This document shows positions 11,252 to 49,469 of a stretch of 54,515 nucleotides of DNA, piece after piece (the stretch's first letter is position 1; every line of letters starts with the position of its first letter). The position numbers and the translations under genes are program-made. The DNA comes from an uncultured Candidatus Saccharibacteria bacterium (lineage in GTDB: Bacteria > Patescibacteriota > Minisyncoccia > Phycocordibacterales > UBA918). The stretch spans positions 1-54,515 of the forward strand of contig CAZKFF010000008.1 in assembly GCA_964552045.1 (NCBI GenBank), written 5' to 3'. Below the pieces are notes generated by a model. It saw only the letters and a list, made by a program, of their open reading frames with translations, was not told where the DNA came from and searched no databases.

Positions 11252-11322
11252 TGCCCGATCGTCTAATGGTAGGACTCTGGTTTCTGGCACCAGCTATCGA
11301 GGTTCGAATCCTTGTCGGGCAG
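11252..11322 (+). tRNA. tRNA-Gln (anticodon CUG)
   Basis: Hand-folded cloverleaf. Acceptor TGCCCGA/TCGGGCA, D arm GTCT-AATGGTA-GGAC, anticodon arm CTGGT-TTCTGGC-ACCAG, variable loop CTAT, T arm CGAGG-TTCGAAT-CCTTG, discriminator G. CCA is not encoded. Confidence 0.9.
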
Positions 11323-11475
11323 CAGCCATGTGAGACCGACCGAGACGCTGATTATAGAGGTTAGCAGTTCGCACCAGTCATGGGCACGAACTCGTCCAAG
11401 AAGTCAGCAGATCGGATCGTAATCTCCAGGTACTATTCCGAAATTGCATACCTGCTGAGAGCAGTATCCAGAAAA

Positions 11476-11500
11476 AACCACCCGAATGGGTGGTTTTTCT
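11476..11500 (+). terminator. intrinsic terminator
   Basis: ACCACCC-GAAT-GGGTGGT followed by TTTTTCT. It ends a ~150-nt non-coding stretch downstream of tRNA-Gln. Confidence 0.75.
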
Positions 11501-11516
11501 TTGCCTCAAAATTCGG

Positions 11517-11522
11517 TATAAT
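11517..11522 (+). promoter_or_regulatory. putative -10 box TATAAT 6 nt upstream of the ATG at 11529
   Basis: GGTATAATTTGGTCATG with no SD. Confidence 0.4.
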
Positions 11523-11528
11523 TTGGTC

Positions 11529-11957
11529 ATGAGAGTAACGAGACTCATTTCAAGATACTTCCTTCTTCTTGCCGTTTTCGCGTTCTTTTTCCTTGGCTTC
11601 CTTGGGCTCTCTCATACGAGTATGGCGATGGGGCAGGACGGGCAGATGAACTCGGGCAATTGCTTTATGCCTGGCATGACAGAAGCGCTCTGCCAGATGA
11701 ACCCACTTGAACACATCGCTTCATGGCAGAGCATGTTCACTGCAGTGCCGAGTCAGAGTGACATCATTTTGCTTCTTCTTGCCTTGCTCGCATTGGCACT
11801 TGGTGCACTCTTTTTGGCGCATCGCAGTTCTGCACCTCCGAGAGCGGTACCCGTATTGCAGCAAAAACTATCTTTATATTTCAAACAAAGGATTCCGATC
11901 GTACTCCCGCTTCAAGAAGCATTTTCTAACGGCATTCTAAACCCAAAGATTTTCTAA
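11529..11957 (+). CDS. small 2-TM protein with Met/Cys/His-rich loop and C-terminal GILNPKIF motif (unnamed family; paralog at 43562..43945)
   Basis: ATG at 11529 in ORF 11490..11957. TMs YFLLLAVFAFFFLGFLGL and IILLLLALLALALGALFLA. Loop NCFMPGMTEALCQMNPLEH. The C-terminus ..AFSNGILNPKIF matches ..LFTAGILNPKLF of the paralog. Confidence 0.65.
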   Translation: MRVTRLISRYFLLLAVFAFFFLGFLGLSHTSMAMGQDGQMNSGNCFMPGMTEALCQMNPLEHIASWQSMFTAVPSQSDIILLLLALLALALGALFLAHRSSAPPRAVPVLQQKLSLYFKQRIPIVLPLQEAFSNGILNPKIF

Positions 11958-12030
11958 ATACCGTTGCTCTCGTTCGCAAAAAATCGAGCGGTTTTTGCTA
12001 TTTATCAATTCTTAACTATATGCATCAATT

Positions 12031-12759
12031 ATGGAAGAACCATCAAAATCAAATCAATTATCAATCCCCATAGCTATTGTAATCGCCGGAGCATTGATCG
12101 CCGGCGCGGTCTATCTCGGCACATCAAAAGGCACAGAAACAGTTGCAGGAAACAATCAGCAACCCCAGCAGGTAGCACAGCAAACGGGCAGTCTTGATGA
12201 AATGAGAGCAATCTCAAAAGACGACCATGTTCGCGGCAATCCCGACGCTCCGGTCAAGATCGTCGAGTACTCGGATCCGGAATGTCCGTTCTGCAAACGA
12301 TTCCACGACACCATGAAGCAGGTCATGGACGAGTACGGTAAGGACGGAAAGGTTGCATGGGTCTACCGCAATTTTCCGCTCGACCAGCTCCACCAAAAAG
12401 CCCGCAACGAAGCGACAGCCATTGAATGCGCTGGCGATCTTGGGGGTAACGACAAGTTCTGGGCATATGCTGACCGGCTCTATGAAATAACTCCATCGAA
12501 TGACGGTCTTGACCCAGCAGAGCTTCCTAAGATTGCACAGTATGTAGGTCTTGATGTAAGCAAGTTCAACACTTGTCTCACCAGTGGTAAATTTACCAAG
12601 CATATCGAGGATGATGTACAAAATGCCATCGCTACCGGGGGCAATGGAACGCCGTGGAGTATTGTCGTTGCGGTCAATGGTAAAAAGTATCCGCTCTCCG
12701 GCGCACAGCCGTATGCATCGGTAAAACAGCTCATTGATCTGGCACTCTCGGAGAAATAA
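12031..12759 (+). CDS. DsbA-family thiol:disulfide oxidoreductase (membrane-anchored)
   Basis: N-terminal TM. Thioredoxin-fold active site YSDPECPFCKRFH. Confidence 0.85.
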   Translation: MEEPSKSNQLSIPIAIVIAGALIAGAVYLGTSKGTETVAGNNQQPQQVAQQTGSLDEMRAISKDDHVRGNPDAPVKIVEYSDPECPFCKRFHDTMKQVMDEYGKDGKVAWVYRNFPLDQLHQKARNEATAIECAGDLGGNDKFWAYADRLYEITPSNDGLDPAELPKIAQYVGLDVSKFNTCLTSGKFTKHIEDDVQNAIATGGNGTPWSIVVAVNGKKYPLSGAQPYASVKQLIDLALSEK

Positions 12760-12761
12760 CT

Positions 12762-13304
12762 ATGGTCATTCAAGCTCTGCAAAAAGTATTCCGGAAACCG
12801 CAGTATATAATCCTCGCCCTTGTCGTGAGCGCGGCGGTTTTCGCCTTTGCGGTTTGGCTTCCGAATCTTTCGCTTATCGTGAAGATCATGGGTCACCCGG
12901 GAATAACGTTTTCGCAGAAGCTTGATCTGCCGCTTAGTCTCTTGGGATCAATTGTCACTAACTTCACTTTGCTTTCCGCTTCGTACACGATCGCCATCGC
13001 ACTACTCTTTGGAGTAAACCTCGCTATGGCGATCTACTTCCTGAACCGAAAAATAAGTGAAGTAAAACAGGGCGGAATAACTACAGGATTTTTGGGTATA
13101 GCAAGTGGCGTGCTTGGTATGGGATGCGCCGCATGCGGTTCGTTCCTGCTCACGAGCGGACTCTCGCTCATTGGCGCATCCGGCATTCTTGTGTTCCTAC
13201 CGCTTGCCGGTTCTGAATTCGGCATCCTTGGAGTAATCTTGCTTTCGGTCTCGATCTACCTCACCGCAAAGCAAATCCAAAATCCTGCGGTCTGTAAAAT
13301 TTAA
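12762..13304 (+). CDS. polytopic membrane protein with intramembrane CxxC (GMGCAACGS), unknown family
   Basis: 180 aa with about 5 hydrophobic segments. Starts 3 nt after the DsbA-like stop. Confidence 0.6.
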   Translation: MVIQALQKVFRKPQYIILALVVSAAVFAFAVWLPNLSLIVKIMGHPGITFSQKLDLPLSLLGSIVTNFTLLSASYTIAIALLFGVNLAMAIYFLNRKISEVKQGGITTGFLGIASGVLGMGCAACGSFLLTSGLSLIGASGILVFLPLAGSEFGILGVILLSVSIYLTAKQIQNPAVCKI

Positions 13305-13315
13305 CCACTAAAATC

Positions 13316-13891
13316 ATGAATAAAAACTTACAAGTCTCAATCCTCATTGCCGTACTCCTTGTTGGAGGAGCACTGTATCTTGGGACATCAAAAAAGAATG
13401 GGGGTCCGCCACTTGCGGCTAACACGGCTCTTGCGGCGAAATTCGACGAGTTAAGTAAAAACGGCAATTCATCCTGCTCTGGCGCATTCAAAGATTCGAT
13501 AGACACGATGCCGGATACGGCACGGTTGCAAGGATCGTGTTGCTCTCCGATGGACATGCACCGCTATGAGGAGCAAGTCACTGGCTTGAAGAAATACAGT
13601 AACATTCCGGAGATCCCGTCGGACCCGTATGACATTGATGCAAAGCTGGCAAAAGATCTCAAAGCGTACTACGACGTAGAGCTTACTCCAGAACAGCAAG
13701 AAGCATACGACTATGCGATGGCTAATTCTGATGAGAAAGGCCCCTGCTGTTGCAAGTGCTGGAGATGGTACGTATACGGAGGCTTGGGCAAATTATTAAT
13801 CCAAAAATATAGCTTCACCGGCGAGCAAGTAACTGAAATCTGGAATCTGTCCGATGGTTGCGGAGGTGCCGGTGATCACGTAAATCACTAA
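13316..13891 (+). CDS. Cys-rich secreted protein, PCYCGC-motif-family-like
   Basis: Signal/anchor VSILIAVLLVGGALYLG. Motifs GSCCSPMDMH, GPCCCKCWRW (compare the PCYCGC motif) and DGCGGAGDHVNH. The family assignment is from memory of the motif only. Confidence 0.55.
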   Translation: MNKNLQVSILIAVLLVGGALYLGTSKKNGGPPLAANTALAAKFDELSKNGNSSCSGAFKDSIDTMPDTARLQGSCCSPMDMHRYEEQVTGLKKYSNIPEIPSDPYDIDAKLAKDLKAYYDVELTPEQQEAYDYAMANSDEKGPCCCKCWRWYVYGGLGKLLIQKYSFTGEQVTEIWNLSDGCGGAGDHVNH

Positions 13892-13892
13892 T

Positions 13893-14423
13893 ATGGAAGA
13901 ACAGACACAATTAACTAAAAAAGAACGTAAAGAATTAAACCGACAGGAAAAAATAGGGACAAAGGAAGCGGAAATGAAATCGCGCCATGCAAAGAAAGTC
14001 ATTACCCGAGTCGGATGGGGTACATTCGGCGTTGCTGTTGTAGCAGGCTTAATATGGCTTGTAGCTTCAGCTCCTAAAACCCCAGAAGGCGACATTCTCT
14101 CTCGCAACGGCTTTCATTGGCATCCGGAGGTCACGATCTACGTCAAAGGAGAGAAGCAGGAAATACCGGCAAACATCGGTATTGGAGCGGTTCATCAGCC
14201 GATCCATACTCACGACGATAGCAATCAAGGAATTGTGCATATGGAATTTCAGGGTCTGGTGAGAAAAGAGAATGCTACGCTTGGCCAGTTTCTTAAAAGC
14301 TGGGGTAAGGACATCAATTCATTCGGCACGAACGTGAAGATGACCGTCAATGGAGAGGAAAATACTGAATTGGAAACTTACGTCATGCAGGATAAAGACA
14401 AGATTGAGTTGCGTTACGAGTAG
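13893..14423 (+). CDS. membrane-anchored protein with HWHP / IHTHD His motifs, unknown function
   Basis: TM GTFGVAVVAGLIWLVA. Motifs GFHWHPEVTIYVKG..IPANIGIG..IHTHDDSNQGIVHME..TLGQFLKSWG. Starts 2 nt after the previous stop. Confidence 0.6.
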   Translation: MEEQTQLTKKERKELNRQEKIGTKEAEMKSRHAKKVITRVGWGTFGVAVVAGLIWLVASAPKTPEGDILSRNGFHWHPEVTIYVKGEKQEIPANIGIGAVHQPIHTHDDSNQGIVHMEFQGLVRKENATLGQFLKSWGKDINSFGTNVKMTVNGEENTELETYVMQDKDKIELRYE

Positions 14424-14441: not shown

Positions 14442-14468
14442 GCAGTATACCCCTAGGGGGTATACTGC
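14442..14468 (+). promoter_or_regulatory. CsoR-type operator: 12-bp inverted repeat around a C4/G5 core, overlapping a TATACT -10 box
   Basis: GCAGTATACCCC-TAG-GGGGTATACTGC. The TATACT at 14461-14466 is 8 nt upstream of the csoR ATG at 14475. Confidence 0.7.
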
Positions 14469-14474
14469 TTGTAT

Positions 14475-14747
14475 ATGCGAAAAGATATCAAGTCAAAAAC
14501 CCTCCGCCGCCTTAAGCTCGTCGAGGGTCAGATTCGGGGAATTCAGAAGATGATTGAGGATGAGAAATATTGTGTCGATATCATTACTCAGTCGAGTGCG
14601 GCTAAGGAAGCTCTTTCTAGTATTGAACACTTAATTCTTGAGAACCATCTATCGACTCATGTTCTTGATTACATTAAGCATGGCAAGGAAAAGAAAGCTA
14701 TTGAGGAAATTCTAAAGGTCTATAAATTAGCACAAAAGAAAAGGTAA
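14475..14747 (+). CDS. csoR: CsoR/RcnR-family metal-sensing transcriptional repressor
   Basis: LRRLKLVEGQIRGIQKMIEDEKYCVDIITQSSAAKEAL..ENHL. Carries the Cys and His ligand positions typical of the family. Confidence 0.9.
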   Translation: MRKDIKSKTLRRLKLVEGQIRGIQKMIEDEKYCVDIITQSSAAKEALSSIEHLILENHLSTHVLDYIKHGKEKKAIEEILKVYKLAQKKR

Positions 14748-14751
14748 CAAC

Positions 14752-16857
14752 ATGCACGACCAAATAATACAAAAGAATATGTACACTTGCCCCATGCATC
14801 CGGAGGTGATGCAGGGAAACCCCGGTATGTGTCCGGAATGCGGTATGCAGTTGGTGCCTACAAAGAATAAAAAATCAGTCGGGCACGAGGGTCATGACAA
14901 ACACGCAGGCCATTCAACCCAGATGTTTTTCCGCAAATTTTGGGTAAGCCTTATTTTGACTATTCCGGTCGTGCTCTACGCCAAGGTTGTGGAGACTATT
15001 TTCAAGTGGTCGCCTCCTGCTTTCCCCGGATCAGACTATCTCCCTCTGATTCTCGGATCAGTTGTCTTTTTCTATGGCGGTTGGGTATTTCTTGCCGGTG
15101 CATGGCGAGAGATCAAAGGACGACTGCCTGGCATGATGACTCTCATAGCCATTGCTATTTCTGCCGCCTATCTCTGGAGCCTGTATGCGGTGTTTGCAGG
15201 AGCCGAGGCTCTGTTTTGGGAGCTTACAACTTTGATCACCATCATGCTTCTTGGACACTGGCTCGAAATGCGAGCAGTTTCCGGGGCACAGGGTGCGCTC
15301 AAGGAACTTTCAAAATTGCTCCCCGATACCGCGGAAGTAATCCGCAACGGAGTAACAATGACTATTCCGCTTTCCGAGCTTCGAGAGAACGATGTTGTAT
15401 TAGTAAAACCCGGAACGAAGATTCCGGCCGACGGATCAATTATTGACGGAGATTCTGACGTGAATGAATCAATGGTCACCGGAGAGTCCAAGCCGGTCTC
15501 CAAAAAACAGGGTGATGCGGTCATCGCAGGTACGATTAACGGCGACGGTGCGCTGAAAATTAAGGTTGCACAAATCGGCGAGAAGACATTTCTTGCCGGC
15601 GTTATGCGCTTGGTCGCCGAGGCGCAGGCTTCCAAATCGCGCCTGCAGATTCTTTCTGATCGGGCGGCTCTTTATCTCACCGTAGTCGCAGTCGGCGGAG
15701 GTATTATCACGCTCGTTGCCTGGCTTCTAGCCGGAGCCGATGTCGGTTTTGCGGTGGCTCGGCTCGTGGCCGTGCTCGTCATCGCCTGTCCGCATGCGCT
15801 TGGTTTGGCAGTCCCTCTTGTTGCATCAATCTCCACGACCAAAGCGGCACAGAATGGCTTTTTAGTAAAACAGCGTCTTTCTCTTGAAGCCGCTCGAACT
15901 GTTGATACGGTGCTTTTTGATAAAACAGGAACACTCACAAAGGGAGAGTTTGGAGTTGTAGAAGTATGGAGTGTCGCAGATCATTCTAAAGACGAGGTCG
16001 TAGAATTGGCCGCTTCCCTCGACGCCTTGTCGGAACATCCGATTGCTCGTGCTGTTGTAGCAAAAGCAAAAGAGCAAGGACTTGCTCTTAAAGACCCTAA
16101 GAAATTTGAAGCGATCAAGGGCAAGGGCGTCAAAGCAATGATCGATGAACAGGAAATAATGATCGGCGGACCGGCACTTCTTGAAGGTCTCAATATTTCT
16201 ATTCCCAGCGAATTATCCAAGCCAGTACAGGATGCAGGGAGAAAAGGCCAAACTATCATTTTTACTATCAGAGACAAAAAACTTCTGGGAGCAATCGCCC
16301 TTGCAGATATTATTCGAGAAGAATCACGTGAAGCTATTAAGTCACTCAAAGAAATGGGCGTGAAGTCGGCTATGATCACTGGTGATTCTGAAGATGTGGC
16401 CAAATGGGTTGCTTCCGAGCTTGGCATTGATGAGTATTTTGCCCGGGTACTTCCGCATCAAAAATCTGAAAAGGTAAAAGCATTGCAAGGCAGAGGTTTA
16501 AAGGTCGCTATGGTCGGCGATGGCATCAACGACGCCCCAGCCCTTACTCAAGCTGATCTCGGTATTGCCATCGGTGCAGGTACAAACGTCGCTATTGAAT
16601 CGGCCGGAATTATTCTTGTTCGCAACGATCCACGGGATATCGTAAAAATCGTCAGATTATCACAGATGACTTACACGAAGATGATCCAAAACCTCTTCTG
16701 GGCAACCGGCTACAACATTGTCGCACTACCACTTGCCGCCGGTGCACTTGCTTTCAAGGGTATTATTCTTGATCCAGCTATCGCCGCTGTGTTCATGTCA
16801 GCAAGTACGGTAATTGTGGCATTTAATGCTGTGCTTTTGAAAAGACGTAAATTATAA
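14752..16857 (+). CDS. copB: P1B-type copper-transporting ATPase, CPH (CopB-like) subtype
   Basis: N-terminal CPMHPE..CPECGM metal-binding module, His-rich SVGHEGHDKHAGHS, TM6 ACPHALGLAVP, DKTGTLT, GDGINDAP. Confidence 0.9.
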   Translation: MHDQIIQKNMYTCPMHPEVMQGNPGMCPECGMQLVPTKNKKSVGHEGHDKHAGHSTQMFFRKFWVSLILTIPVVLYAKVVETIFKWSPPAFPGSDYLPLILGSVVFFYGGWVFLAGAWREIKGRLPGMMTLIAIAISAAYLWSLYAVFAGAEALFWELTTLITIMLLGHWLEMRAVSGAQGALKELSKLLPDTAEVIRNGVTMTIPLSELRENDVVLVKPGTKIPADGSIIDGDSDVNESMVTGESKPVSKKQGDAVIAGTINGDGALKIKVAQIGEKTFLAGVMRLVAEAQASKSRLQILSDRAALYLTVVAVGGGIITLVAWLLAGADVGFAVARLVAVLVIACPHALGLAVPLVASISTTKAAQNGFLVKQRLSLEAARTVDTVLFDKTGTLTKGEFGVVEVWSVADHSKDEVVELAASLDALSEHPIARAVVAKAKEQGLALKDPKKFEAIKGKGVKAMIDEQEIMIGGPALLEGLNISIPSELSKPVQDAGRKGQTIIFTIRDKKLLGAIALADIIREESREAIKSLKEMGVKSAMITGDSEDVAKWVASELGIDEYFARVLPHQKSEKVKALQGRGLKVAMVGDGINDAPALTQADLGIAIGAGTNVAIESAGIILVRNDPRDIVKIVRLSQMTYTKMIQNLFWATGYNIVALPLAAGALAFKGIILDPAIAAVFMSASTVIVAFNAVLLKRRKL

Positions 16858-16869
16858 TTAACAAACTTT

Positions 16870-18447
16870 ATGAATAAAAAAAATCTTTACATTAGTCTCG
16901 GTATCGCAATAGTCGCCATAGGTGGAGCGTTTCTCTTTTCTCAGAATAATCCGTCCTCTTTGGTGCGGAGCGAATATGTTAGTGCGGATACATCCGGACT
17001 CTCTGAAGCTTCGGCAACACAGACCGTTGAGCTAAAGAATGGCGATACCTATGATCTCACTGCAAGCTATGTCAAAAAGAATATTAACGGCAAAGAGTAT
17101 CGGATGCTTGCGTACAACGGATCGATTCCGGGACCGCTTATTAAAATCGCCCAAGGAGCGGAAGTCACGATCAATTTCAAAAATGGCACTGATATGAATA
17201 CGCTTCTCCACTCGCACGGCGTCAGAATGGACAATGCGTTTGATGGATCGCAGACATCGCAAAAAGAAATGAAGCCGGGTGAGATTTTTTCTTACCAGAT
17301 CAAGTTTCCTGATGCCGGCATCTACTGGTATCACCCTCATGTCCGAGAAGACTTTGAGCAGGAGCTCGGGCTCTATGGAAACTACCTTGTAGTTCCCGGA
17401 GGTGCCGATTATTGGTCGCCGGTCAATCGTGAAGTTGCTCTGTTTCTGGATGACATTCTGATCGAGGATGGAACGATCGCTTTAAGCAAACAAGAAGCCG
17501 ACCGTACCCTCATGGGGAGATTCGGCAATGTCATGCTCGTAAACGGCGAGACTGATTACTCGCTATCTGCAAAAAGAAGCGAGGTTGTGAGACTCTATAT
17601 CACTAATTCAGCAAACACTAGACCATTTAATTTTGCTATAGAAGGAGCAAAAATGAAGCTGGTGGGAGCGGATGGCGGTGCATACGAAAAGGATCAATGG
17701 GCAGATTCAGTGACACTGGGACCGTCGGAGCGAGCTGTTGTTGAGGTATTGTTTGATACGACCGGCACGTTTGTGATTCAAAATAAGACACCAGATAAAA
17801 CCTACACGCTTGGCACGGTCAATGTCAGCACGGATTCTGTTGAGGTCTCTTATGCATCTGAGTTCAATCAACTCCGCACTCATGTAGAAACGTCTGAGAG
17901 CATTGCTCCATTCCGACAATATTTCGACAAAATACCGGACAAACAAATCAAGCTCTCCATCGACATGGGTGGAAACATGATGAATATGATGGGTGGCCAC
18001 ATGATGCCGGACGGCACGATGATGGGCGGCTCGATGATGAGTCCGGAAGGAGGTATTGAATGGGATGACGAAAACGAGATGATGAATCAAATGTCCGATT
18101 CCGATTCAGTCAAATGGAAAGTGGTGGATCAGGCAACCGGAAAAGAGAACATGGACATCGATTGGACATTCAAGCGTGGAGAGCCGGTCAAAATCAGGAT
18201 TTTCAATGATCCAAATTCAATGCACCCGATGCAACACCCGATGCATTTTCACGGCCAGCGGTTCCTAATCTTGGAGCGAAACGGTGTAAAAGAAACTAAT
18301 CTTGTATGGAAAGACACTGTCTTTATCCCTTCAGGCGAGACGGTGGATATTCTGCTCGACACTTCAAACCCGGGTACATGGATGGCGCACTGCCATATTG
18401 CCGAGCACTTGGAAGCGAGCATGATGATGAAATTCGAGGTTAAGTAG
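16870..18447 (+). CDS. multicopper oxidase with Met-rich insert
   Basis: Cu-ligand motifs HSHG, WYHPH, HPMHFHG and HCHIAEHLEASMM. Met-rich segment MGGNMMNMMGGHMMPDGTMMGGSMM. Confidence 0.9.
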   Translation: MNKKNLYISLGIAIVAIGGAFLFSQNNPSSLVRSEYVSADTSGLSEASATQTVELKNGDTYDLTASYVKKNINGKEYRMLAYNGSIPGPLIKIAQGAEVTINFKNGTDMNTLLHSHGVRMDNAFDGSQTSQKEMKPGEIFSYQIKFPDAGIYWYHPHVREDFEQELGLYGNYLVVPGGADYWSPVNREVALFLDDILIEDGTIALSKQEADRTLMGRFGNVMLVNGETDYSLSAKRSEVVRLYITNSANTRPFNFAIEGAKMKLVGADGGAYEKDQWADSVTLGPSERAVVEVLFDTTGTFVIQNKTPDKTYTLGTVNVSTDSVEVSYASEFNQLRTHVETSESIAPFRQYFDKIPDKQIKLSIDMGGNMMNMMGGHMMPDGTMMGGSMMSPEGGIEWDDENEMMNQMSDSDSVKWKVVDQATGKENMDIDWTFKRGEPVKIRIFNDPNSMHPMQHPMHFHGQRFLILERNGVKETNLVWKDTVFIPSGETVDILLDTSNPGTWMAHCHIAEHLEASMMMKFEVK

Positions 18448-42066: not shown

Positions 42067-42529
42067 ATGGAAAAGCAAGCGGTACTCGCAGGAGGTTCTG
42101 CGCTTTTGCCGGGTATTGTCGAACTGATACAGGAAGACTGCCATACCATCGGTGCTCGCTGATCCGCTTTTGAAGGTCAAAGGGCATGAGGTGCTCGGGT
42201 CAGGAACTCCGGGCATATTGTTCGCCTCAGTCATCGGATTGGCCCTCTATGCAAAACAGCGCCGCAGAAGCGATATTCATTTGCTCGGCAAGTACCGGTA
42301 TGAAGAAGGTGACACTAAAAAGGAGCTGCCGCGCATACAGGATATCCGCACCCTGAACGATCTGTATTATTACACCTACAGCACCGTGCAGAATGTCCGG
42401 AGTCTTCTGGATGAACGCGCCGATCTCTTTGCAAAGAAAATGACGCTACCGATCCAGCTGATACTGAGCCTTCTGTTTTTGATGTGTACGCTTGCATTTC
42501 TCGTTTGGGTTGTCCTTACATACATGTAA
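42067..42529 (+). pseudogene. 5'-truncated, frameshifted pilM-like (actin-fold ATPase C-terminus) remnant fused to a TM tail
   Basis: 42067..42162 gives MEKQAVLAGGSALLPGIVELIQEDCHTIGAR*. The +1 frame (ORF 42152..42529) continues LADPLLKVKG..LFASVIGLALY, like a PilM/FtsA C-terminus, and only ~75 aa of that domain remain. Confidence 0.45.
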
Positions 42530-42534
42530 AATAT

Positions 42535-42999
42535 ATGCATATGTTCAGTTCGACGCACAAAGGGTTCACTCTCATAGAAGTACTCCTAGTCATCGCGATC
42601 CTTGCGATCCTCGCTTCGATCGTGATCATCGCCATTAATCCTGCAAAGCAGTTTGCGAGCGCTCGCGATGCGCAGCGCTTGAGCGATGTCTACTCGATCA
42701 TGAATGCGCTCCATCAGTATGCGCTTGATAACGAAGGAGCGTTTCCTGATGCACTTTCAACTGAGGAGCTCGAGATATGCCGTACCGACAGCGATTCCTG
42801 CGAGGGGCTCTCTGACCTCTCAGAGCTCACCAACGACCAGCTCTATCTGGTATCTATGCCGCTCGATCCGCAGTGTCCATCCTCAGACGCCAATTGTGAC
42901 GCAAATGGCACCGGATATTTTGTCGGTCTCACCGACGGCGGCCGAGTCACGGTCAATGCGTATGGTGCTGAAGACAGTGAGATAAGCATTACCCGCTAG
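42535..42999 (+). CDS. type IV pilin-like protein (prepilin N-terminal cleavage/methylation domain)
   Basis: ..HKG/FTLIEVLLVIAILAILASIVIIAINP. The alternative ATG at 42541 is 8 nt after TAAAAT. Confidence 0.85.
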   Translation: MHMFSSTHKGFTLIEVLLVIAILAILASIVIIAINPAKQFASARDAQRLSDVYSIMNALHQYALDNEGAFPDALSTEELEICRTDSDSCEGLSDLSELTNDQLYLVSMPLDPQCPSSDANCDANGTGYFVGLTDGGRVTVNAYGAEDSEISITR

Positions 43000-43064
43000 G
43001 CCACATGAGGGGATAATGTTCATTGTCTGCACCCTATAGAGCTTTATATACTTGAGTGGTTACT

Positions 43065-43073
43065 TGTCATACT
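43065..43073 (+). promoter_or_regulatory. putative extended -10 (TGtCATACT) 7 nt upstream of the ATG at 43081
   Basis: TTGTCATACTTTTTTTCATG. Confidence 0.35.
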
Positions 43074-43080
43074 TTTTTTC

Positions 43081-43554
43081 ATGAATACACACCGCGCAGT
43101 CTTCCGCAGCGCATCAGGATTTACCCTCATAGAAGTACTCCTGGTCATTGCCATACTCGCTATTCTGGCGGCAGTTGTGATTGTCGCTATCAATCCGGCA
43201 AAACAGTTTGGCGAAGCGCAGAATGCGCAGCGCAGAAGTGATGTCAGGTCGATACTTGATGCTGTACACCAATACAGCATTGATAATTTCGGTTCACTTC
43301 CGTCCGACAGCATTCCCTCGGGTTCGGCCTGCAGCACCGACGGCGCAGAGATATGCGTTTCCGGAGCTGCCTGCACCGGTGTCAGCCTTGACGATCTCAT
43401 TGATGAGGAACTTTATCTCACCGACATCCCGACGGATCCGACAGCAGCGAGCGATCTTGGTACCGGCTATTATATTTTTGAAAACGGCAACGGGCGCATC
43501 GGAGTCTGTGCTCCTTCAGCGTATGGTGACGTGGATATTAGTGTGATACGATGA
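43081..43554 (+). CDS. type IV pilin-like protein (paralog of 42535)
   Basis: ..ASG/FTLIEVLLVIAILAILAAVVIVAINPAKQF. Shares the ..ELYL..P.DP.. motif and the C-terminal ..ISVIR/ISITR with its neighbour. Confidence 0.85.
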   Translation: MNTHRAVFRSASGFTLIEVLLVIAILAILAAVVIVAINPAKQFGEAQNAQRRSDVRSILDAVHQYSIDNFGSLPSDSIPSGSACSTDGAEICVSGAACTGVSLDDLIDEELYLTDIPTDPTAASDLGTGYYIFENGNGRIGVCAPSAYGDVDISVIR

Positions 43555-43561
43555 AAATCAT

Positions 43562-43945
43562 ATGGCGGGGAGGAGAACGCTGACAAAAATCATCTCAGGA
43601 GCATTGGCAATAACTGCCTGCCTGCTCGTCGTCTCGTTCAGCATGCATGCTTTGCAGATCAAGCATGTGCACCCCGGTTCCGACGCGCATACGCAGGGAA
43701 AGACCGAAGTGCTCAGCGAATATATGCACGGAGCGGAGAAAAAGCTGTTCCTCTATACGCTGGCGTCTTTCTTGTTACTTGGCGCCTTTCTCTCCGCTGT
43801 TGCACGTACCTATCCGGCCTCCCTGCACATCCACAAACTCAGTTCGATACTGCGCCGCTATGCCGGCGTTCCTCTGCATCCATATTTTTTCAGTTATCTC
43901 CGTATTCTTTTTACAGCGGGAATTTTAAATCCCAAGCTCTTTTAA
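43562..43945 (+). CDS. small 2-TM protein with His-rich loop and C-terminal GILNPKLF motif (paralog of 11529..11957)
   Basis: TMs IISGALAITACLLVVSF and LFLYTLASFLLLGAFLSAV. Loop HALQIKHVHPGSDAHTQ..YMHG. C-terminus LFTAGILNPKLF. Confidence 0.65.
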   Translation: MAGRRTLTKIISGALAITACLLVVSFSMHALQIKHVHPGSDAHTQGKTEVLSEYMHGAEKKLFLYTLASFLLLGAFLSAVARTYPASLHIHKLSSILRRYAGVPLHPYFFSYLRILFTAGILNPKLF

Positions 43946-43990: not shown

Positions 43991-44680
43991 ATGAGTATCA
44001 CATCACAATACAACACGCTTGTCTTATTTGTCTTCGCGTTCACCACACTGCTCTTGCTGCCGTTCTCTGCTTCGGCGCATGAAACGCACATGTACGAGAT
44101 TAACGGCGCAACATATAAGTTCGTAGTCGGCTCGCTCAACGAACCGGTTATTGTCGACGATAAGACCGGCGCCAGTTTCGAGATAATCCGAAACGGCACA
44201 CCTCTTGTAGGAGCTCAGGATTCGCTGCAGTTGGAGATGAGTGCCGGCGATAAGAGCAGAGTCGTCAGCCTGAGCCCCGTACATGGTGCGGAGGGCCAAT
44301 ACAAGTCGGACTTCATCGCAACGGTCCCGACGACGCTTACTTACCGCGTGTACGGTACCCTTGAGGATACGGAGGTGGATCTCTCGTTCACCTGCAATCC
44401 TGCAGGTCATCCACAGTCGGAAGAGGATACAAACCGCACGGAAATAAGCGACAACGTTTTCCAGACGCTCAAGCGCGGCTCGTTCGGATGTCCGCAGCCT
44501 AAAGAAGCGTTCGGATTCCCTGAGGAAGCGCAAAGCTCATTCCAGATGGAACAGGCTGTTGCTGAAGTCGCTCAGAGTCAAAGCGACAGCAGTGCAGCAC
44601 AGCGGCCGCTGACAATGGGTGCACTTGCGCTCTCAGTCTTGGCATGCGCGCTTGCGGCATTCGCCATCAACAAAAAATAA
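43991..44680 (+). CDS. YcnI-like (DUF1775-like) copper-binding protein with C-terminal TM anchor
   Basis: The signal ends ..SASA/HETH, so the mature N-terminus would be His. Beta-rich domain and a C-terminal TM LTMGALALSVLACALAAFAI. Sits directly upstream of the copC-copD fusion, as ycnI-ycnJ does in B. subtilis. Confidence 0.55.
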   Translation: MSITSQYNTLVLFVFAFTTLLLLPFSASAHETHMYEINGATYKFVVGSLNEPVIVDDKTGASFEIIRNGTPLVGAQDSLQLEMSAGDKSRVVSLSPVHGAEGQYKSDFIATVPTTLTYRVYGTLEDTEVDLSFTCNPAGHPQSEEDTNRTEISDNVFQTLKRGSFGCPQPKEAFGFPEEAQSSFQMEQAVAEVAQSQSDSSAAQRPLTMGALALSVLACALAAFAINKK

Positions 44681-44701
44681 CAGCATAAGACCAAAAAAAC
44701 T

Positions 44702-46798
44702 ATGTGGTTTAGAAAAGTAGGGGTGTATGCCGCTATGGTCTCTGCTATAGCTTTATTGCCATCGCTGGCTTTTGCACATGCAACTCCAGTCTCATATGTT
44801 CCCGCAGCTTCTGCCACGGAATTGGCGGTTCCTTCATCGATTTCAATACGCTTTACGGAGCGTATTGAGGTGGGTGCGAGCAGTCTGACGGTATATGCGC
44901 CAGACGGTGCAGAGGTGAATGAAGGGAAGGGCGTGCTCGACCCCGCAGATGAGCGCGTTCTGTCTGTGCCAATCCGTGACTCAGGCGAGGGGGTTTATAC
45001 CGTGTCGTGGCAAGTAGTGTCTGTTGACGACGGACATTTCACGAAAGGAGCATATTCGTTTCTGGTGGATGCCACCGGGAAAGCCTATGAAGGCGGCGAC
45101 GCCGGAGTGGAGATCACATACAGCTCCAAATTGCCCGAAGCTGCGCTCTCATTCCTTAATCTCATAGGCGAAAGCCTGTTCCTTGCGGTTTTGCTGTGCG
45201 CAGCTTTCGTCATGCCTTCCGTCCGAAAGAAGATGCCGCAGCTTGCGGATGCCGGGTCAGTGTTCCTTCGTGCATGCGTGCATCTGGTATCAGTCGGATA
45301 TCTGCTGTTTGTCGCCGGAGGCCTGCTGAGCATCATGCACAAAAGTGCAGAGCTCGGTGCGCTGCAGAAAATAACCGTATTCGAAGCGATAACCACCTAT
45401 GCCGGGTCTTCGGCGGGGACATACGCAATACTCAAACTGCTTGCGGCAACAGTGTTCCTTGCGGTGTTCCTGAGTATACGTAAAAAACTGCCTGTCTTCC
45501 CGACGTGGGCGGTTGCGCTCCTGGGGGCGACGCTCGGCACGATCCTGTACATGCAGTCGCACATCAGCCATGCTGCAGCATCGCTTATACTTCCGAAATT
45601 CAGTATTTTCGTGACGTTCGTACACCTGGCGGCGAAAGAACTTGTTATCGGCAGTATCGTGGTACTCTTTATTTTCTTTGTCCTTTCGCTCAGACAACGA
45701 TCGCTTGGTCTTTTCTCTGGCATCGCATTGCGTCTTGACGTGTTCATCGCAGGAGCGCTGTGCTTTGCAAGTGTCTCGGGCGCATACATCACTTGGCTGC
45801 ATTTGAAGCACGGGATAAATATTGCCACAACCGAGTGGGGGGAACGGTTTCTGGTGCTTCTTGTTCTGACAGCGCTCTTCGGCGTCTTCAGGCTTCTCCA
45901 TCAGTGCATAACGGTACCGCGTCTGGCACAGACGCGCGTCCAGAGGCTCATGCTGTTCTCACTCCTTGTGGAGACAGGCATCGCCTTGGCGGTCCTCTTC
46001 TTCTCAGGATACATATCCATGACAACCCCGCCGTTCACTGTCGCACAGTATGATTATGCGAAGGAGTACACTTCTGAAGGAGTGCGGATACAGATGGGCG
46101 TGCATCCGTATGAGGAAGGGTCCATGCTCATCACGCTTACTGATGCTCATACGCACGCACCGATCGAGCCAACCAGCGTGATCGTGTCCGCCCACAATGA
46201 AGAGAAGGATATCGGACCTAATGTGCTGCCTTTGGCGCAGCGGTTCGAAGGAGGATACGTCTTTCCGCTTGCTGATCTGGTGCCGGCAGGCCAGTGGGAA
46301 CTGTCAGTGAACGCAGGACAGCAAAACGGATACGATGCGCATGCGATGTTTGCCTTAAACTATCCGCAGGATATCGAAGCAAGCGCCTGGTCGGATACTG
46401 TCCGGGTATTTGACGAGCTGGCAGTATGGACCATCGCTGCGGGCATTGGCATGCTTGTCTTCTTCTGCGCGTTGTTCGCGTATAGCAGCAGACAATGGGA
46501 CAAGGCGTCATATGCGCCCATAACCGCATCGCCTGTAGCTGCGTCTCAGTTCATCGCGGCAGCTGTAGGCGCGGTTGCCTGCATGCTCGCCCTGTTCTTT
46601 CTCTGGCAGCTTGTGGGGGTGTCCTCATTCCAGAAGCAGTGCATCGCCGACGGCTTCGCATGGCGGCAGGCGTTTCCTACCAGGGAGTTCGACGCCACGT
46701 CACAGAATGCGGTCGTCGGTTGCACGGTCCATGAGGGACACTATCATTTCGTCGACCAACGCGAATACCGTTTCTTCATGAAATCTCAACATGAATGA
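44702..46798 (+). CDS. CopC-CopD fusion protein (YcnJ-like) with extra C-terminal extracytoplasmic domain and Cys/His tail
   Basis: CopC: AHATPVSYVP..VYTVSWQVVSVDDGHFTKGAYSFLV. Then about 8 CopD-type TMs, an Ig-like segment (GVRIQMGVHPYEEG..WELSVNAG), 2 more TMs, and the tail ..GCTVHEGHYHF. Confidence 0.8.
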   Translation: MWFRKVGVYAAMVSAIALLPSLAFAHATPVSYVPAASATELAVPSSISIRFTERIEVGASSLTVYAPDGAEVNEGKGVLDPADERVLSVPIRDSGEGVYTVSWQVVSVDDGHFTKGAYSFLVDATGKAYEGGDAGVEITYSSKLPEAALSFLNLIGESLFLAVLLCAAFVMPSVRKKMPQLADAGSVFLRACVHLVSVGYLLFVAGGLLSIMHKSAELGALQKITVFEAITTYAGSSAGTYAILKLLAATVFLAVFLSIRKKLPVFPTWAVALLGATLGTILYMQSHISHAAASLILPKFSIFVTFVHLAAKELVIGSIVVLFIFFVLSLRQRSLGLFSGIALRLDVFIAGALCFASVSGAYITWLHLKHGINIATTEWGERFLVLLVLTALFGVFRLLHQCITVPRLAQTRVQRLMLFSLLVETGIALAVLFFSGYISMTTPPFTVAQYDYAKEYTSEGVRIQMGVHPYEEGSMLITLTDAHTHAPIEPTSVIVSAHNEEKDIGPNVLPLAQRFEGGYVFPLADLVPAGQWELSVNAGQQNGYDAHAMFALNYPQDIEASAWSDTVRVFDELAVWTIAAGIGMLVFFCALFAYSSRQWDKASYAPITASPVAASQFIAAAVGAVACMLALFFLWQLVGVSSFQKQCIADGFAWRQAFPTREFDATSQNAVVGCTVHEGHYHFVDQREYRFFMKSQHE

Positions 46799-46804
46799 GG
46801 TACT

Positions 46805-47758
46805 ATGTACGGTATGAAAAACATAGCAATCGTGATTGTGGCGCTCATCGTTGTGTTGGCCGTTGCCTCTATGTTTATAAGCTGGCAGGCAGCTCAGGTC
46901 ATTGATCAGAGTGGTACGCAGGTACCGCTTACAGAGGAGAGCACTGCGCACACACAAGAAACGGCCTATGGCTTTTCGTATGAGTACGAGCCAGACACGG
47001 ACGGGTATACCGTCGTTACTCCCGAGAATGCCACGCGCGGCGATCTGGTGTTCACGCAGTCAGTGTTTGACACGACCGATTATGAGGATCTGCAGCAGGG
47101 TGAGGTTCCCCGTGAAGCTCCCGCCTCGCTCACTATAGAGGTATATCGTAATCCGGCGAATCAGGAGACGCGCGAATGGATCACGCAGCACGATGAGTCG
47201 AACTACCATCTGAGCCCTGATGGCACGATCTCATCTGTCACGAAGAACAGCACGGAATTTCTGACCTATCAGTACGATGGGCTGTACCGTGCGGATGCAT
47301 ATGTAACCGGGAAGAATGGATACATATATGTATTCGCCAACATGTGGGACAATCCGCAGAGTGCGATGAAAACGGATATGGAGGAACTGCTTGAAACAGT
47401 GCAGTGGAGCACTCCGCAGGTGCCCGCACAGGCAGCGCATGGGGATATCATGGTCTTTTCCCCTGCATACAATGCCCACATCGGTTCTCCGCTTAAGGTC
47501 GAGGGTACCGCACGGGGCTTCTGGTACTTTGAAGGCTCATTTCCGCTTATGCTTGTCGATGCAAATGGGGATACTGTCGGAGAAGGCATTGCAACTGCCC
47601 AGGGTGAATGGATGACCGAGGATTTCGTCCCGTTTTCTGGAGAGGTCACATTCAGCGCGCCGGTTTCAGGGGAGGGAACACTCATCCTGAGGAAGGATAA
47701 TCCGTCAGGGATGCCTGAAAATGATGATTCCATCGAAATATCCGTACGGTTCGAGTGA
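46805..47758 (+). CDS. membrane-anchored protein with C-terminal Gmad2-type Ig-like domain
   Basis: GDIMVFSPAYNAHIGSPLKVEGTARGFWYFEGSFPLMLVDANGD..GEWMTEDFVPFSGEVTF. The alternative ATG at 46814 is 7 nt after TACTAT. Confidence 0.65.
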   Translation: MYGMKNIAIVIVALIVVLAVASMFISWQAAQVIDQSGTQVPLTEESTAHTQETAYGFSYEYEPDTDGYTVVTPENATRGDLVFTQSVFDTTDYEDLQQGEVPREAPASLTIEVYRNPANQETREWITQHDESNYHLSPDGTISSVTKNSTEFLTYQYDGLYRADAYVTGKNGYIYVFANMWDNPQSAMKTDMEELLETVQWSTPQVPAQAAHGDIMVFSPAYNAHIGSPLKVEGTARGFWYFEGSFPLMLVDANGDTVGEGIATAQGEWMTEDFVPFSGEVTFSAPVSGEGTLILRKDNPSGMPENDDSIEISVRFE

Positions 47759-47818
47759 TTTGAAAAAACCTGTCCGGCTGACTATACTGGAACCCGGGTC
47801 AGCACAAGGAAGGATATT

Positions 47819-48148
47819 ATGCGGTCTATCCAGGGAGAGCTCGCAGCAGCTCTTCGAGAAGCGACAGGTTTTGAAGTCGCCGGAGAATGGTGCGAAGGCA
47901 CATTCTATTTCGAATCCGACTGTTTCGAATTCTCCTGCGTCATGCACCAGGATGCGTTCGAGATCAGAAACATAGAGTGCACACAGAAAGGTGTCGGCAG
48001 AAAGATCGTGGAAGCAGTCCACGAATACTGTGACGACCGGGACCTGTGCGTCTTTGCAAGCTGCGTTGCAAGCAGCGCGATCGGATTCTGGCACAAGATG
48101 GGCTACGTCGAAAGCGGTGAACGCGATGAGTTCTTCCGTGTAGCGTAA
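47819..48148 (+). CDS. small GNAT-like (acetyltransferase C-terminal half) protein
   Basis: ..QKGVGRKIVEAV..AIGFWHKMGYVE resembles GNAT motifs A and B. It is short and the call is tentative. Confidence 0.4.
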   Translation: MRSIQGELAAALREATGFEVAGEWCEGTFYFESDCFEFSCVMHQDAFEIRNIECTQKGVGRKIVEAVHEYCDDRDLCVFASCVASSAIGFWHKMGYVESGERDEFFRVA

Positions 48149-48157
48149 CAATCATTG

Positions 48158-48184
48158 CAGCTCCGGGCATCCGGGGCTGTTTTG
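48158..48184 (+). terminator. intrinsic terminator
   Basis: CAGCTCCGG-GCAT-CCGGGGCTG followed by TTTTGTT. Confidence 0.65.
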
Positions 48185-48228
48185 TTCGGTCAAGCGCCAA
48201 TGTGCTAGGATATAAGGAGTTTTGTAAT

Positions 48229-48234
48229 TATAAT
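48229..48234 (+). promoter_or_regulatory. putative -10 TATAAT 8 nt upstream of the ATG at 48243
   Basis: ATTATAATCATATAGTATG. Confidence 0.4.
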
Positions 48235-48242
48235 CATATAGT

Positions 48243-48749
48243 ATGAAAACCGTTTACATTCTCATCGCAGCTTTAATTGTCATAGGAGGAGGCGTGTTGG
48301 GATATTTCTCATTCAACAAAACGCAAGAGGAACCGGTTCCCGAAGGGTATCACCGCATGGAAGACGGTACGCTGATGCGCAATGATGCGGGCGTCGAGGG
48401 CATGGGGGCGTTGCAGGAATTCCAGCTGAATGAAATGGAGCGGGAAAGCGCTTCATCTGCTGTCGATCAAAATGCACGCGTCTTTGATGTGAAGGGCATG
48501 AATTTCGCTTTCGATGTGAAAGAGATTCGAGTGAAGAAAGGCGATACTGTAGCAATCAACTTCGAAAGCACCGACGGCCTCCATGACTGGACACTCGACG
48601 AGTTTGATGCACAGACAAACCGGGTCCAGCCAGGCACGCCGACATCCGTCACGTTCGTCGCGGACGAAGCAGGTACATTTGAATATTACTGTTCAGTCGG
48701 CAATCACCGCGCACAAGGGATGGTCGGTACACTCGTCGTTGAAGAATAA
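48243..48749 (+). CDS. membrane-anchored cupredoxin (type-1 copper) domain protein
   Basis: Ligand pattern LHDW ... YYCSVGNHRAQGM (His; Cys-x4-His-x4-Met). Confidence 0.8.
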   Translation: MKTVYILIAALIVIGGGVLGYFSFNKTQEEPVPEGYHRMEDGTLMRNDAGVEGMGALQEFQLNEMERESASSAVDQNARVFDVKGMNFAFDVKEIRVKKGDTVAINFESTDGLHDWTLDEFDAQTNRVQPGTPTSVTFVADEAGTFEYYCSVGNHRAQGMVGTLVVEE

Positions 48750-48770
48750 TTATTTCCTGGGGCACTGCTC

Positions 48771-48776
48771 TATAAT
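48771..48776 (+). promoter_or_regulatory. putative -10 TATAAT 9 nt upstream of the ATG at 48786
   Basis: CTCTATAATCGAAACAGTATG. Confidence 0.4.
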
Positions 48777-48785
48777 CGAAACAGT

Positions 48786-49469
48786 ATGAAAAAACACACA
48801 TGGAAGATCGTATTTGTTGTTGCAGCGCTGTTGATGGGTGCTTCATTCCTGTACGCACATTACGTCAGCAGCAAGGCAAACGAAGGAGTGGTCATCTCCG
48901 ATCACTTTAAGGGAAATGAATCCGCCGCAGTCACGCTTACCGAGTATGCAGACTTCCAGTGTCCGGCCTGCGGGCAGTTCTATCCGATCATGAAAGAGGT
49001 CGAGACGCAGTATGGAGACAAACTCAGGATCGAGTTTAAGCACTTTCCACTGATGACCATCCATCCGTTTGCACTGCCAGCGGCTAAGGCAGCGGAAGCC
49101 GCTGGACAGCAGGGGCAATTTTGGCAAATGCATGACAAACTTTTTGAGAATCAGAACACCTGGTCACGGTCTGCAGCGCCGCAGGCATACTTTATCCAAT
49201 ATGCAGAGGAGCTTGGGCTCGACATGCCGTTGTTCAAGAAGCATCTGCGATCCTCGCTTCTGCAGGACCATATTGAAAGCCAATTCAATGAAGCTCAGGA
49301 TTTGGGTCTTACGGGTACTCCTTCCTTCTACCTCAATGGCGAGCGTCTGGAGTTCCAGACATTCGAGGAGTTTTTTGGCGCTATCGACGCAGCGCTCGGC
49401 ATCGCTCCGCAGGATGCGGCGCAGACTGTAGCTTCAAGCAGCGAGAATGGAGTAGAGTTCGGCATCTAG
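48786..49469 (+). CDS. DsbA-family thiol:disulfide oxidoreductase (second copy)
   Basis: N-terminal TM. Active site YADFQCPACGQFYP. Confidence 0.85.
   Translation: MKKHTWKIVFVVAALLMGASFLYAHYVSSKANEGVVISDHFKGNESAAVTLTEYADFQCPACGQFYPIMKEVETQYGDKLRIEFKHFPLMTIHPFALPAAKAAEAAGQQGQFWQMHDKLFENQNTWSRSAAPQAYFIQYAEELGLDMPLFKKHLRSSLLQDHIESQFNEAQDLGLTGTPSFYLNGERLEFQTFEEFFGAIDAALGIAPQDAAQTVASSSENGVEFGI

Follow-up and report, generated by a model that had tools for sequence, protein, structure and literature searches.

The window analysed here, a stretch of 54,515 nucleotides (nt) from an uncultured Candidatus Saccharibacteria bacterium (contig CAZKFF010000008.1), contains two short open reading frames (ORFs) for small membrane proteins that share a C-terminal motif, protein A (11529..11957, + strand, 142 amino acids (aa)) and protein B (43562..43945, + strand, 127 aa). 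We tentatively propose, at rather less than an even chance, that the family to which they belong consists of CutF-like, cis-acting, co-translational sensors of extracytoplasmic copper. The family shows no detectable sequence relationship to CutF; it may work alike, yet we do not place it in the CutF family, because neither a PP- or RAPP-like motif nor a relationship to DUF2946 was detected. An earlier sequence-only reading of this DNA had offered three roles for the two proteins, namely a dedicated membrane metal sensor, a chaperone or an anchoring component. Among these, a sensor appears to fit best, since the part common to all subtypes of the family is cytoplasmic, and the chaperone and anchor roles are less favoured. 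Taken together, our analyses point to a cis-acting co-translational sensor in preference to these two or to signalling of the classical kind.

Both ORFs lie on the + strand with two transmembrane (TM) helices, loops and C-termini exactly as that reading had quoted them. The C-terminal motif of protein A, PLQEAFSNGILNPKIF, is followed directly by the stop codon TAA (11907..11957, + strand), and that of protein B, YLRILFTAGILNPKLF, also ends at a TAA (43895..43945, + strand). Pairwise comparison finds likeness between A and B only in the last 11 aa, of which 8 are identical (BLASTP E 8e-4), and profile-profile alignment with hhalign gives 20 columns (E 2.6e-6, probability 88.6), confirming that the shared C-terminus is real. 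It is also conserved well beyond these two copies. The motif LQEAFSxGIL(N/H)PK(I/L/V)(F/Y) is kept in at least 1,910 protein clusters: with a profile built from three subtypes, 1,910 clusters (representatives at 50% identity) are retrieved at E<=1e-3, of which 1,060 also pass E<=1e-10. In the retrieved proteins the more permissive pattern G-[ILV]-[ILV]-[NH]-[PSA]-[KR]-x-[FYH] was present in 240/280, and in 200 of those 240 it ends at the exact C-terminus.

A and B belong to a large and uncurated family, apparently spread across the Patescibacteria, whose members are the lead ORFs of envelope copper-defence genes. For protein A there are 182 word-indexed homologues of about 130-145 aa, all of them unnamed or 'hypothetical', and the few source names among them lead to Patescibacteria groups such as Ryanbacteria and Kaiserbacteria. 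Protein B has one other homologue. Family lengths are mostly 127-151 aa. The N-terminal domain fusions seen in some homologues were rejected as mis-called starts, some of which translate a tRNA (GSNPTRGA). That no named family can be assigned, as had been said from the sequence, is borne out by all the searches performed. When A, B and 42 family members were scanned against Pfam and NCBIfam, only TM-biased noise came back. DUF2946 gave no match to A or B in Pfam at E<=10, was not among the 25 families listed of the 47 matched when the 42 members were scanned, and was not found with NCBIfam. A PDB sequence-profile search with the family had no match, Foldseek comparison of the AlphaFold2 model with the PDB gave 0 matches, and a literature string search for the C-terminal motif found nothing.

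Protein A has K/R at a basic N-terminus, followed by a hydrophobic helix 1 (residues 3-25, in agreement with the AlphaFold2 model), an outer loop without any K or R, a short helix at residues 59-71, a second TM helix and a basic tail of 45 aa. Helix 2 (11754..11828, + strand) corresponds to residues 76-100 in the AlphaFold2 model, with a predicted local distance difference test score of about 90; it is oriented N-out/C-in and is poorly conserved in sequence. Family members have on average 0.6 K+R and 3.2 D+E in the loop, and their tails carry a mean net charge of +3.1; this combination of an acidic loop and a basic tail indicates an N-in, loop-out, C-in topology. AlphaFold2 was run twice on protein A, using alignments of 37 and 120 sequences, and the models contain only helices plus a low-confidence loop and tail, with no beta-domain. 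The last 9 residues are a low-confidence coil.

The extracytoplasmic part of A carries the ligand motif C45-x9-C55-x-M57-N-P-L-E61-H62, continued by a juxtamembrane helix that runs to T71 and includes W66, Q67, M69 and F70 (11661..11741, + strand). In the 120-sequence A-type alignment, conservation of at least 90% was found on the loop side for C45, C55, M57, E61, H62, W66, M69 and F70, with Q67 invariant, and in the tail for L128, E130, F132, S133, G135, I136, L137, P139 and K140. In the 37-sequence set C45, C55, E61, H62, W66, Q67 and F70 are all invariant. The A-type loop motif occurs in 158/280 family proteins, and the spacing of the loop Cys pair is tight, at 8-9 residues. Protein B has a His-only loop (H29, H35, H37, H43 and H56) without Cys. 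The candidate loop ligands are thus soft in A (Cys, Met, His, Trp) and borderline in B (His). Neither protein has a CX2C or CxxC motif. Helix 2 and the linker behind it are not conserved in sequence across the family and the TM helices hold no conserved ligands, yet the stretch that separates helix 2 from the motif's last residue varies little in length (median 40 aa, interquartile range 38-42, n=276).

To place the family in its genomic setting, we used 80 related loci (L002-L080) fetched from the species representatives of a genome database. These loci yielded a third subtype, the C type, with a loop of the form D-H-G-H...C-E-T-V and a tail ending ...SYLxxLFSSGLIHSKLH; it shares islands with A-type copies and bridges A and B in sequence. 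There are therefore three loop subtypes on one tail: Cys/Met/His (A), His-only (B) and HGH-Cys (C). The only element common to all of them is the cytoplasmic C-terminus, an almost invariant peptide of 16 aa that ends at the stop codon. A fourth type of relative, of about 130 to 205 aa, was seen in copper loci (L011:18618-19232, L029:5568-6185 and L063:524-913). It pairs an A-like loop, NHGIxH..GC...PCPEN..HHxQA, with a different tail that has a W(L/I)xLFE(N/H)SPS motif, so that loops and tails look modular.

The association of the A type with copper genes, noted originally from the window only, is practically complete across the related loci. In the 74 loci with at least 500 nt of downstream sequence, nearly all of them titled Patescibacteria, an ORF on the same strand starts within 300 nt in every case and within 100 nt in 71, the median distance being 63.5 nt. 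The next gene is DsbA-like in 37 loci, DUF305 in 13, DUF411 in 9 and an ATPase in 8, and 71 of the 74 next genes fall in the DsbA-like, DUF305, DUF411, P1B-ATPase, DUF3105, TM180 (a multi-helix membrane protein) or Cys-rich clusters. Where at least 5 kb of downstream sequence was available (55 loci), an ATPase was found within 6 kb in 43, and DsbA-like genes, TM180, DUF305 and csoR were found in 35, 23, 16 and 14 respectively. Of the four core C-type genes, three are followed by a DsbA-like gene and one by a cupredoxin-like gene; a DsbA-like gene also comes after the divergent copy in L054. Paralogues within one island each head their own gene block. Besides CsoR, no regulator recurs in the 80 loci, and no two-component, sigma or anti-sigma genes recur, leaving no evident partner acting in trans.

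The RNA directly after the lead ORF is structured. Behind protein A, 13 nt past its stop codon, there is a hairpin followed by a T-run (11970..12001, + strand) that is terminator- or attenuator-like, and a hairpin at this place is kept, with different stems, in 4/5 of the set formed by the window and its nearest relatives. Over the 60 nt 3' of lead-ORF stops the mean folding z-score is -1.63, with 41% of the values below -2, compared with a mean of about 0 after the DsbA-like, TM180 and csoR genes, which served as controls internal to the operons. Strict terminator-like hairpins follow 25/80 A genes versus 5/74 DsbA-like genes, and the one in the window spans 11970-11991. In some loci the RNA of the last lead-ORF codons and of the stop codon base-pairs with that around the start of the following gene, enclosing an inner hairpin. 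Because the stems cannot be aligned, this pairing was assessed by permutation and within-locus tests in place of RNAalifold. The duplex energy was -8.1 kcal/mol for own-locus pairs versus -5.7 kcal/mol for cross-locus pairs, and none of 20000 permutations was as low. The pairing ranks in the best 5% of its own locus in 8/30 loci (p 8e-5). It is present at about 8-12 of the 30 A-to-DsbA junctions, at A-to-DUF411 junctions and at 3/4 C-type-to-DsbA junctions, and in the paired loci the stop codon sits inside the stem. Stop-codon usage is also unusual: lead ORFs in the related loci end in TAG (41), TAA (39) or TGA (2), compared with TAA 290, TAG 112 and TGA 56 for neighbouring conserved genes, an avoidance of TGA with a chi-square p of 3.6e-6.

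From these elements a mechanism can be proposed. With the ribosome at the C-terminal motif, helix 2 would be just out of the exit tunnel. Copper binding to the exposed loop, or oxidation of its Cys residues, would alter the insertion of helix 2, and this would change the pull on the nascent chain and the dwell of the ribosome at the motif or the stop codon. The dwell would in turn remodel the downstream RNA and set the expression of the genes behind the lead ORF, which would be DsbA and the following genes for A, and a 229-aa protein and CopCD for B. Different loops, of a Cu(I) type in A and a Cu(II) type in B, would in this way feed one common C-terminal output. A bolder form of the same idea, which we consider unlikely in its entirety, is that the family represents a new class of force-sensitive, proline-free ribosome-arrest peptides ending at the stop codon. 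Such a 'DsbA/copper monitoring substrate' would report the condition of the cell envelope, as copper load or thiol-oxidation capacity, through co-translational helix 2 insertion and feedback-control DsbA-like and copper genes on near-leaderless mRNAs of candidate-phyla-radiation bacteria, with paralogues tuned to Cu(I) or Cu(II).

Several observations weigh against a co-translational sensor. Not one of 280 family proteins has a PP or RAPP-like motif of the sort seen in arrest peptides known to serve copper or Sec/YidC sensing. The 14-residue juxtamembrane helix NPLEHIAxWQSMFT is conserved beyond the needs of a bare ligand site, which would suit a stable protein with a partner, and the hairpins after A (25/80) could just mean that A is an abundant protein, expressed in surplus. 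The gene for B is not promoter-proximal. With regard to the RNA, both junctions in the window lack the stop/start pairing (51st percentile), the loci that have it are partly related to each other, and over 18 junctions RNAalifold gave no consensus structure, MAFFT being unable to align the stems. In addition, the 13 nt between the stop codon of A and its hairpin are about the distance to the edge of a terminating ribosome's footprint.

The main rival, possible in our view and somewhat unlikely, is that these are stable and abundant membrane-anchored copper binders whose cytoplasmic C-terminal peptide, a short linear motif, docks a common partner, for example the ATPase. A would then accept or buffer extracytoplasmic Cu(I) for the P1B-ATPase, the DsbA-like protein and the multicopper oxidase, and B would hand Cu(II) to CopCD or receive it from there. 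The conserved ligand set C45, C55, M57, H62, W66 and M69, which recalls the His/Met/Trp site of CusF, and the very strong conservation of the juxtamembrane helix argue for this explanation, as does the frequent linkage to the ATPase (within 6 kb in 43/55 loci) and to DsbA-like genes (35/55). Moreover, soft ligands in A versus His in B match the chemistry of Cu(I) export versus that of Cu(II) and CopC, and an own promoter together with terminator-like hairpins after A suits expression in excess of the neighbouring genes. However, a buffer on the outside needs no invariant cytoplasmic tail at the exact C-terminus, helix 2 without conserved residues offers no obvious intramembrane interface, and several paralogues ending in one tail would have to share a single partner in competition. 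There is no partner gene with universal linkage. Nor does this rival explain why a linker of unconserved sequence keeps its length, or why linkage in cis is strict.

Linkage in cis and the structured RNA after the stop codon are equally unexplained if the protein is a TM copper sensor that acts in trans, loop occupancy being relayed to its cytoplasmic tail and the tail sequestering a regulator such as CsoR or serving as a conditional degron for Lon, FtsH or Clp. An outer ligand loop with a conserved, free, cytoplasmic C-terminus is indeed a minimal sensor architecture, csoR lies just 5' of A in 14/55 loci, and the C-type tails (GLIHSKLH) resemble the C-terminal Lon degron of SulA. Nevertheless CsoR is absent from most loci and its boxes are mostly 3' of the A block, and with two-component, sigma and anti-sigma genes failing to recur in the 80 loci we regard a sensor of this kind as quite unlikely. 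For the A type only, a role as redox partner or substrate of the adjacent DsbA-like protein was also considered, in which the loop Cys pair (C-x8/9-C), beside a horizontal helix, shuttles electrons, perhaps with TM180, as a split relay of the DsbB/VKOR kind. The tight Cys spacing of 8-9 residues, the DsbA-like gene as next gene in 37/74 loci, often with TM180 (GCAACG motif) after it, and an apparent coupling in some loci of DsbA-like translation to the end of A all agree with such a relay. We find it very doubtful, given that B has no loop Cys and the C type one while tail and context are unchanged, that many A genes precede DUF305, DUF411 or an ATPase without a DsbA-like gene or TM180, and that a four-helix core resembling a quinone site is lacking.

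The A gene was described originally as the first gene of a copper cluster, and this is correct. A tRNA-Gln identified by ARAGORN lies directly 5' of the A unit (11252..11323, + strand), and over-extended ORFs of homologues that translate a tRNA show that this adjacency recurs. Between the tRNA and A, a GC hairpin (ACCACCC/GGGTGGT) with a T-run, read from the sequence, is terminator-like and would insulate A from upstream transcription (11478..11503, + strand); the same design is found in the nearest relatives (L088-L090). A -10 box, TATAAT (11517..11522, + strand), lies 6 nt 5' of the start codon of A and a Shine-Dalgarno sequence is lacking, suggesting a leaderless or near-leaderless start, a layout that most genes of the family share. 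A strict -10 pattern near the ATG was found in 40/66 loci, and in more by eye, and a Shine-Dalgarno-like motif in only 2. The sequence TTGCCT was rejected as a -35 box for A since it is just 10 nt from the -10 box.

Downstream of A, after a gap of 73 nt, is a gene for a DsbA-like thiol oxidoreductase (12031..12759, + strand; Pfam Thioredoxin_4/DSBA), the commonest gene directly after A-type genes. It is followed by the gene for TM180 (12762..13304, + strand), a CxxC membrane protein of 180 aa with several helices, a GMGCAACG motif and no counterpart in Pfam or NCBIfam. TM180 is found in 31 related loci, mostly straight after the DsbA-like gene, and may be a membrane redox partner of the DsbA-like protein. 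Next are two secreted or membrane proteins without a family match (13316..14423, + strand), a Cys-rich one of 191 aa and one of 176 aa. The 191-aa protein (13316..13891) carries the sequence GPCCCKCW, and the 'PCYCGC' label given to it earlier has no Pfam or NCBIfam support. The 176-aa protein clusters loosely with the DsbA-like group by BLAST. The block ends with csoR, a copper P1B-ATPase with an HMBD N-terminus and a multicopper oxidase (14469..18447, + strand), for which, as for the DsbA-like gene, the earlier labels stand. The gene order is the same in the four nearest relatives of A.

Directly before csoR there is a perfect CsoR-type operator palindrome, TATACCCCTAGGGGGTATA (14446..14464), the only one in the window. 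Control of A by CsoR was rejected, as this sole box is 2.9 kb 3' of the start of A. In 22/80 loci there are boxes of the form TACCC-N-GGGTA, but these mostly stand in front of csoR-ATPase, several kb 3' of A, rather than in front of the lead ORF, so that A is usually not behind a CsoR operator.

The B locus is arranged differently, and B cannot be called the first gene of its co-directional string, as two pilin-like (N_methyl) genes precede it (42484-43554). The second of these (43081..43554, + strand) ends 7 nt before B. On the only other contig with a B-type gene (L081, 3-233) a pilin gene, 64% identical, is again followed by B with the same 7-nt gap. No pilin genes are found near A-type loci, and this linkage is particular to the B type. 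Following B after 45 nt are the genes for a 229-aa secreted protein (43991..44680) and a CopC-CopD fusion, together 43991..46798 on the + strand. The CopC-CopD assignment is confirmed, and the 'YcnI-like' label proposed for the 229-aa protein has no support from Pfam, NCBIfam or PDB sequences. After cleavage at the predicted site (SASA) the mature N-terminus of this protein would be H-E-T-H. The association of the B type with CopCD comes from one genome and a 710-bp contig. Further 3' of CopCD (46805-49469) are a Gmad2-domain protein, a small GNAT-like protein, a plastocyanin/azurin-like cupredoxin and a second DsbA-like protein, by which the copper cluster on the B side reaches about 49.5 kb.

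Serine recombinases recur in 23 of the related loci and, together with the position of the A unit after a tRNA in the window and elsewhere, make these clusters look like mobile islands. In four islands flanked by serine recombinases (L046, L056, L061 and L070, about 5-10 kb) a conserved block lies just 5' of the A-type gene and consists of a ferric-reductase-like FAD/NAD membrane protein, an unassigned protein of about 310-440 aa and ApbE. In many loci (L006, L008, L047, L057, L077, L080 and others) the P1B-ATPase is present as two or three consecutive ORF fragments, which could be due to frameshifts, assembly errors or recoding.

Patescibacteria have tiny genomes with few recognisable regulators, and we know of no account of how they sense metals outside the cell. 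The family described here is very large (at least 1,900 clusters at 50% identity), is tied to copper and thiol-redox genes and is not in Pfam, NCBIfam or PDB. If it is truly CutF-like, co-translational metal sensing would extend to a new phylum, where it would involve a force step at membrane insertion and a stalling motif that is new and free of proline, with a 16-residue element that lends itself to testing. If instead the proteins are stable, they represent a copper-binding module of a new kind, tethered to the membrane and bearing a cytoplasmic docking motif that has yet to be explained. On either reading the family can be used as an annotation marker for copper islands in Patescibacteria genomes.

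The known system closest to the mechanism that we favour is CutF of R. capsulatus, the product of the first gene of cutFOG. It is small and exported, and carries a Sec signal and a CxxxC motif as well as a stalling motif in its C-terminal part (PMC9973294). Copper on the nascent exported chain prolongs ribosome dwell and opens a stem-loop that shields the next gene, and CutF acts in cis only (PMC9973294). CutF-like proteins include Bordetella CruR, Xanthomonas/Stenotrophomonas CopL and His-only subgroups, and their ORFs precede metal-homeostasis genes with intergenic gaps mostly below 100 nt (PMC9973294). The present family resembles these DUF2946-like proteins in its size (<150 aa), in its N-terminal export or insertion signal and in an outside Cys and/or His motif (C-x9-C-x-M-x4-H in A, five His in B, HGH...C in the C type). 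It is also like them in its conserved C-terminal segment and in its position on the same strand directly 5' of copper-homeostasis genes with gaps mostly below 100 nt. The RNA between lead ORF and next gene tends to be structured here too, with stop/start pairing in part of the loci and at neither junction of the window. However, there is no detectable sequence relationship (no DUF2946 match), and a second TM helix lies between ligand motif and C-terminus, so that the tail stays cytoplasmic. A proline-rich motif is absent from the last 15 residues (0/280), where GIL(N/H)PK(I/L)(F/Y) ends at the stop codon instead. The downstream genes are DsbA-like, DUF305, DUF411 and ATPase genes and not CutO, Cus or TonB genes, and the family occurs in Patescibacteria, from which the CutF survey did not report such proteins (PMC9973294).

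ScsA is likewise small and putatively a membrane protein of two helices; its gene opens the Salmonella scsABCD operon, which is induced by copper and encodes Dsb-like thiol oxidoreductases (PMC10907172). It has no sequence similarity to the family, has a CX2C in or near helix 1, a lipobox-like sequence and a peroxidase-like signature (PMC10907172), and lacks a conserved motif at the extreme C-terminus. Chaperones of the CusF/CupA type share the outward Met, His, Cys and Trp ligands and the linkage to a copper exporter, but they are folded beta-domains (OB or cupredoxin-like), whereas the loop here, of about 30 aa, contains a single short helix, is modelled with low confidence and matches no PDB structure. 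MerF, MerE and MerT are small two- or three-helix membrane proteins of metal operons with Cys ligands, although their Cys pairs are inside helix 1 and on the cytoplasmic face, in contrast to the TM helices of this family, which have no conserved ligands. DsbB and VKOR differ in having a four-helix core in one polypeptide with CxxC and a loop Cys pair, A having only two helices and no CxxC.

YidC-type monitoring substrates, for which search criteria have been given (PMC7897499), offer the second close parallel. Peptides of the ApcA/MifM type, with their one or two helices, expose a short loop outside and keep the C-terminus in the cytosol (PMC7897499, PMC10987492); some arrest motifs form the very C-terminus and halt the ribosome at the stop codon, and for N-out/C-in helices a spacer of defined length between TM helix and arrest site is expected (PMC10987492). 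The family here differs in that its targets are not sec or yidC genes, its motif is unrelated to the known ones (NSP-stop, NAP-stop and DGMK-stop), its outside loop is highly conserved and ligand-rich, and its arrest is only proposed. Shared with MifM and ApcA are a length of 80-200 aa, one or two N-terminal TM helices, a short outside loop, a cytosolic C-terminus with a hydrophilic segment of at least 40 aa, a C-terminus conserved within subgroups and sometimes placed exactly at the stop codon, and a short, little-varying spacer from the TM helix to the arrest motif.

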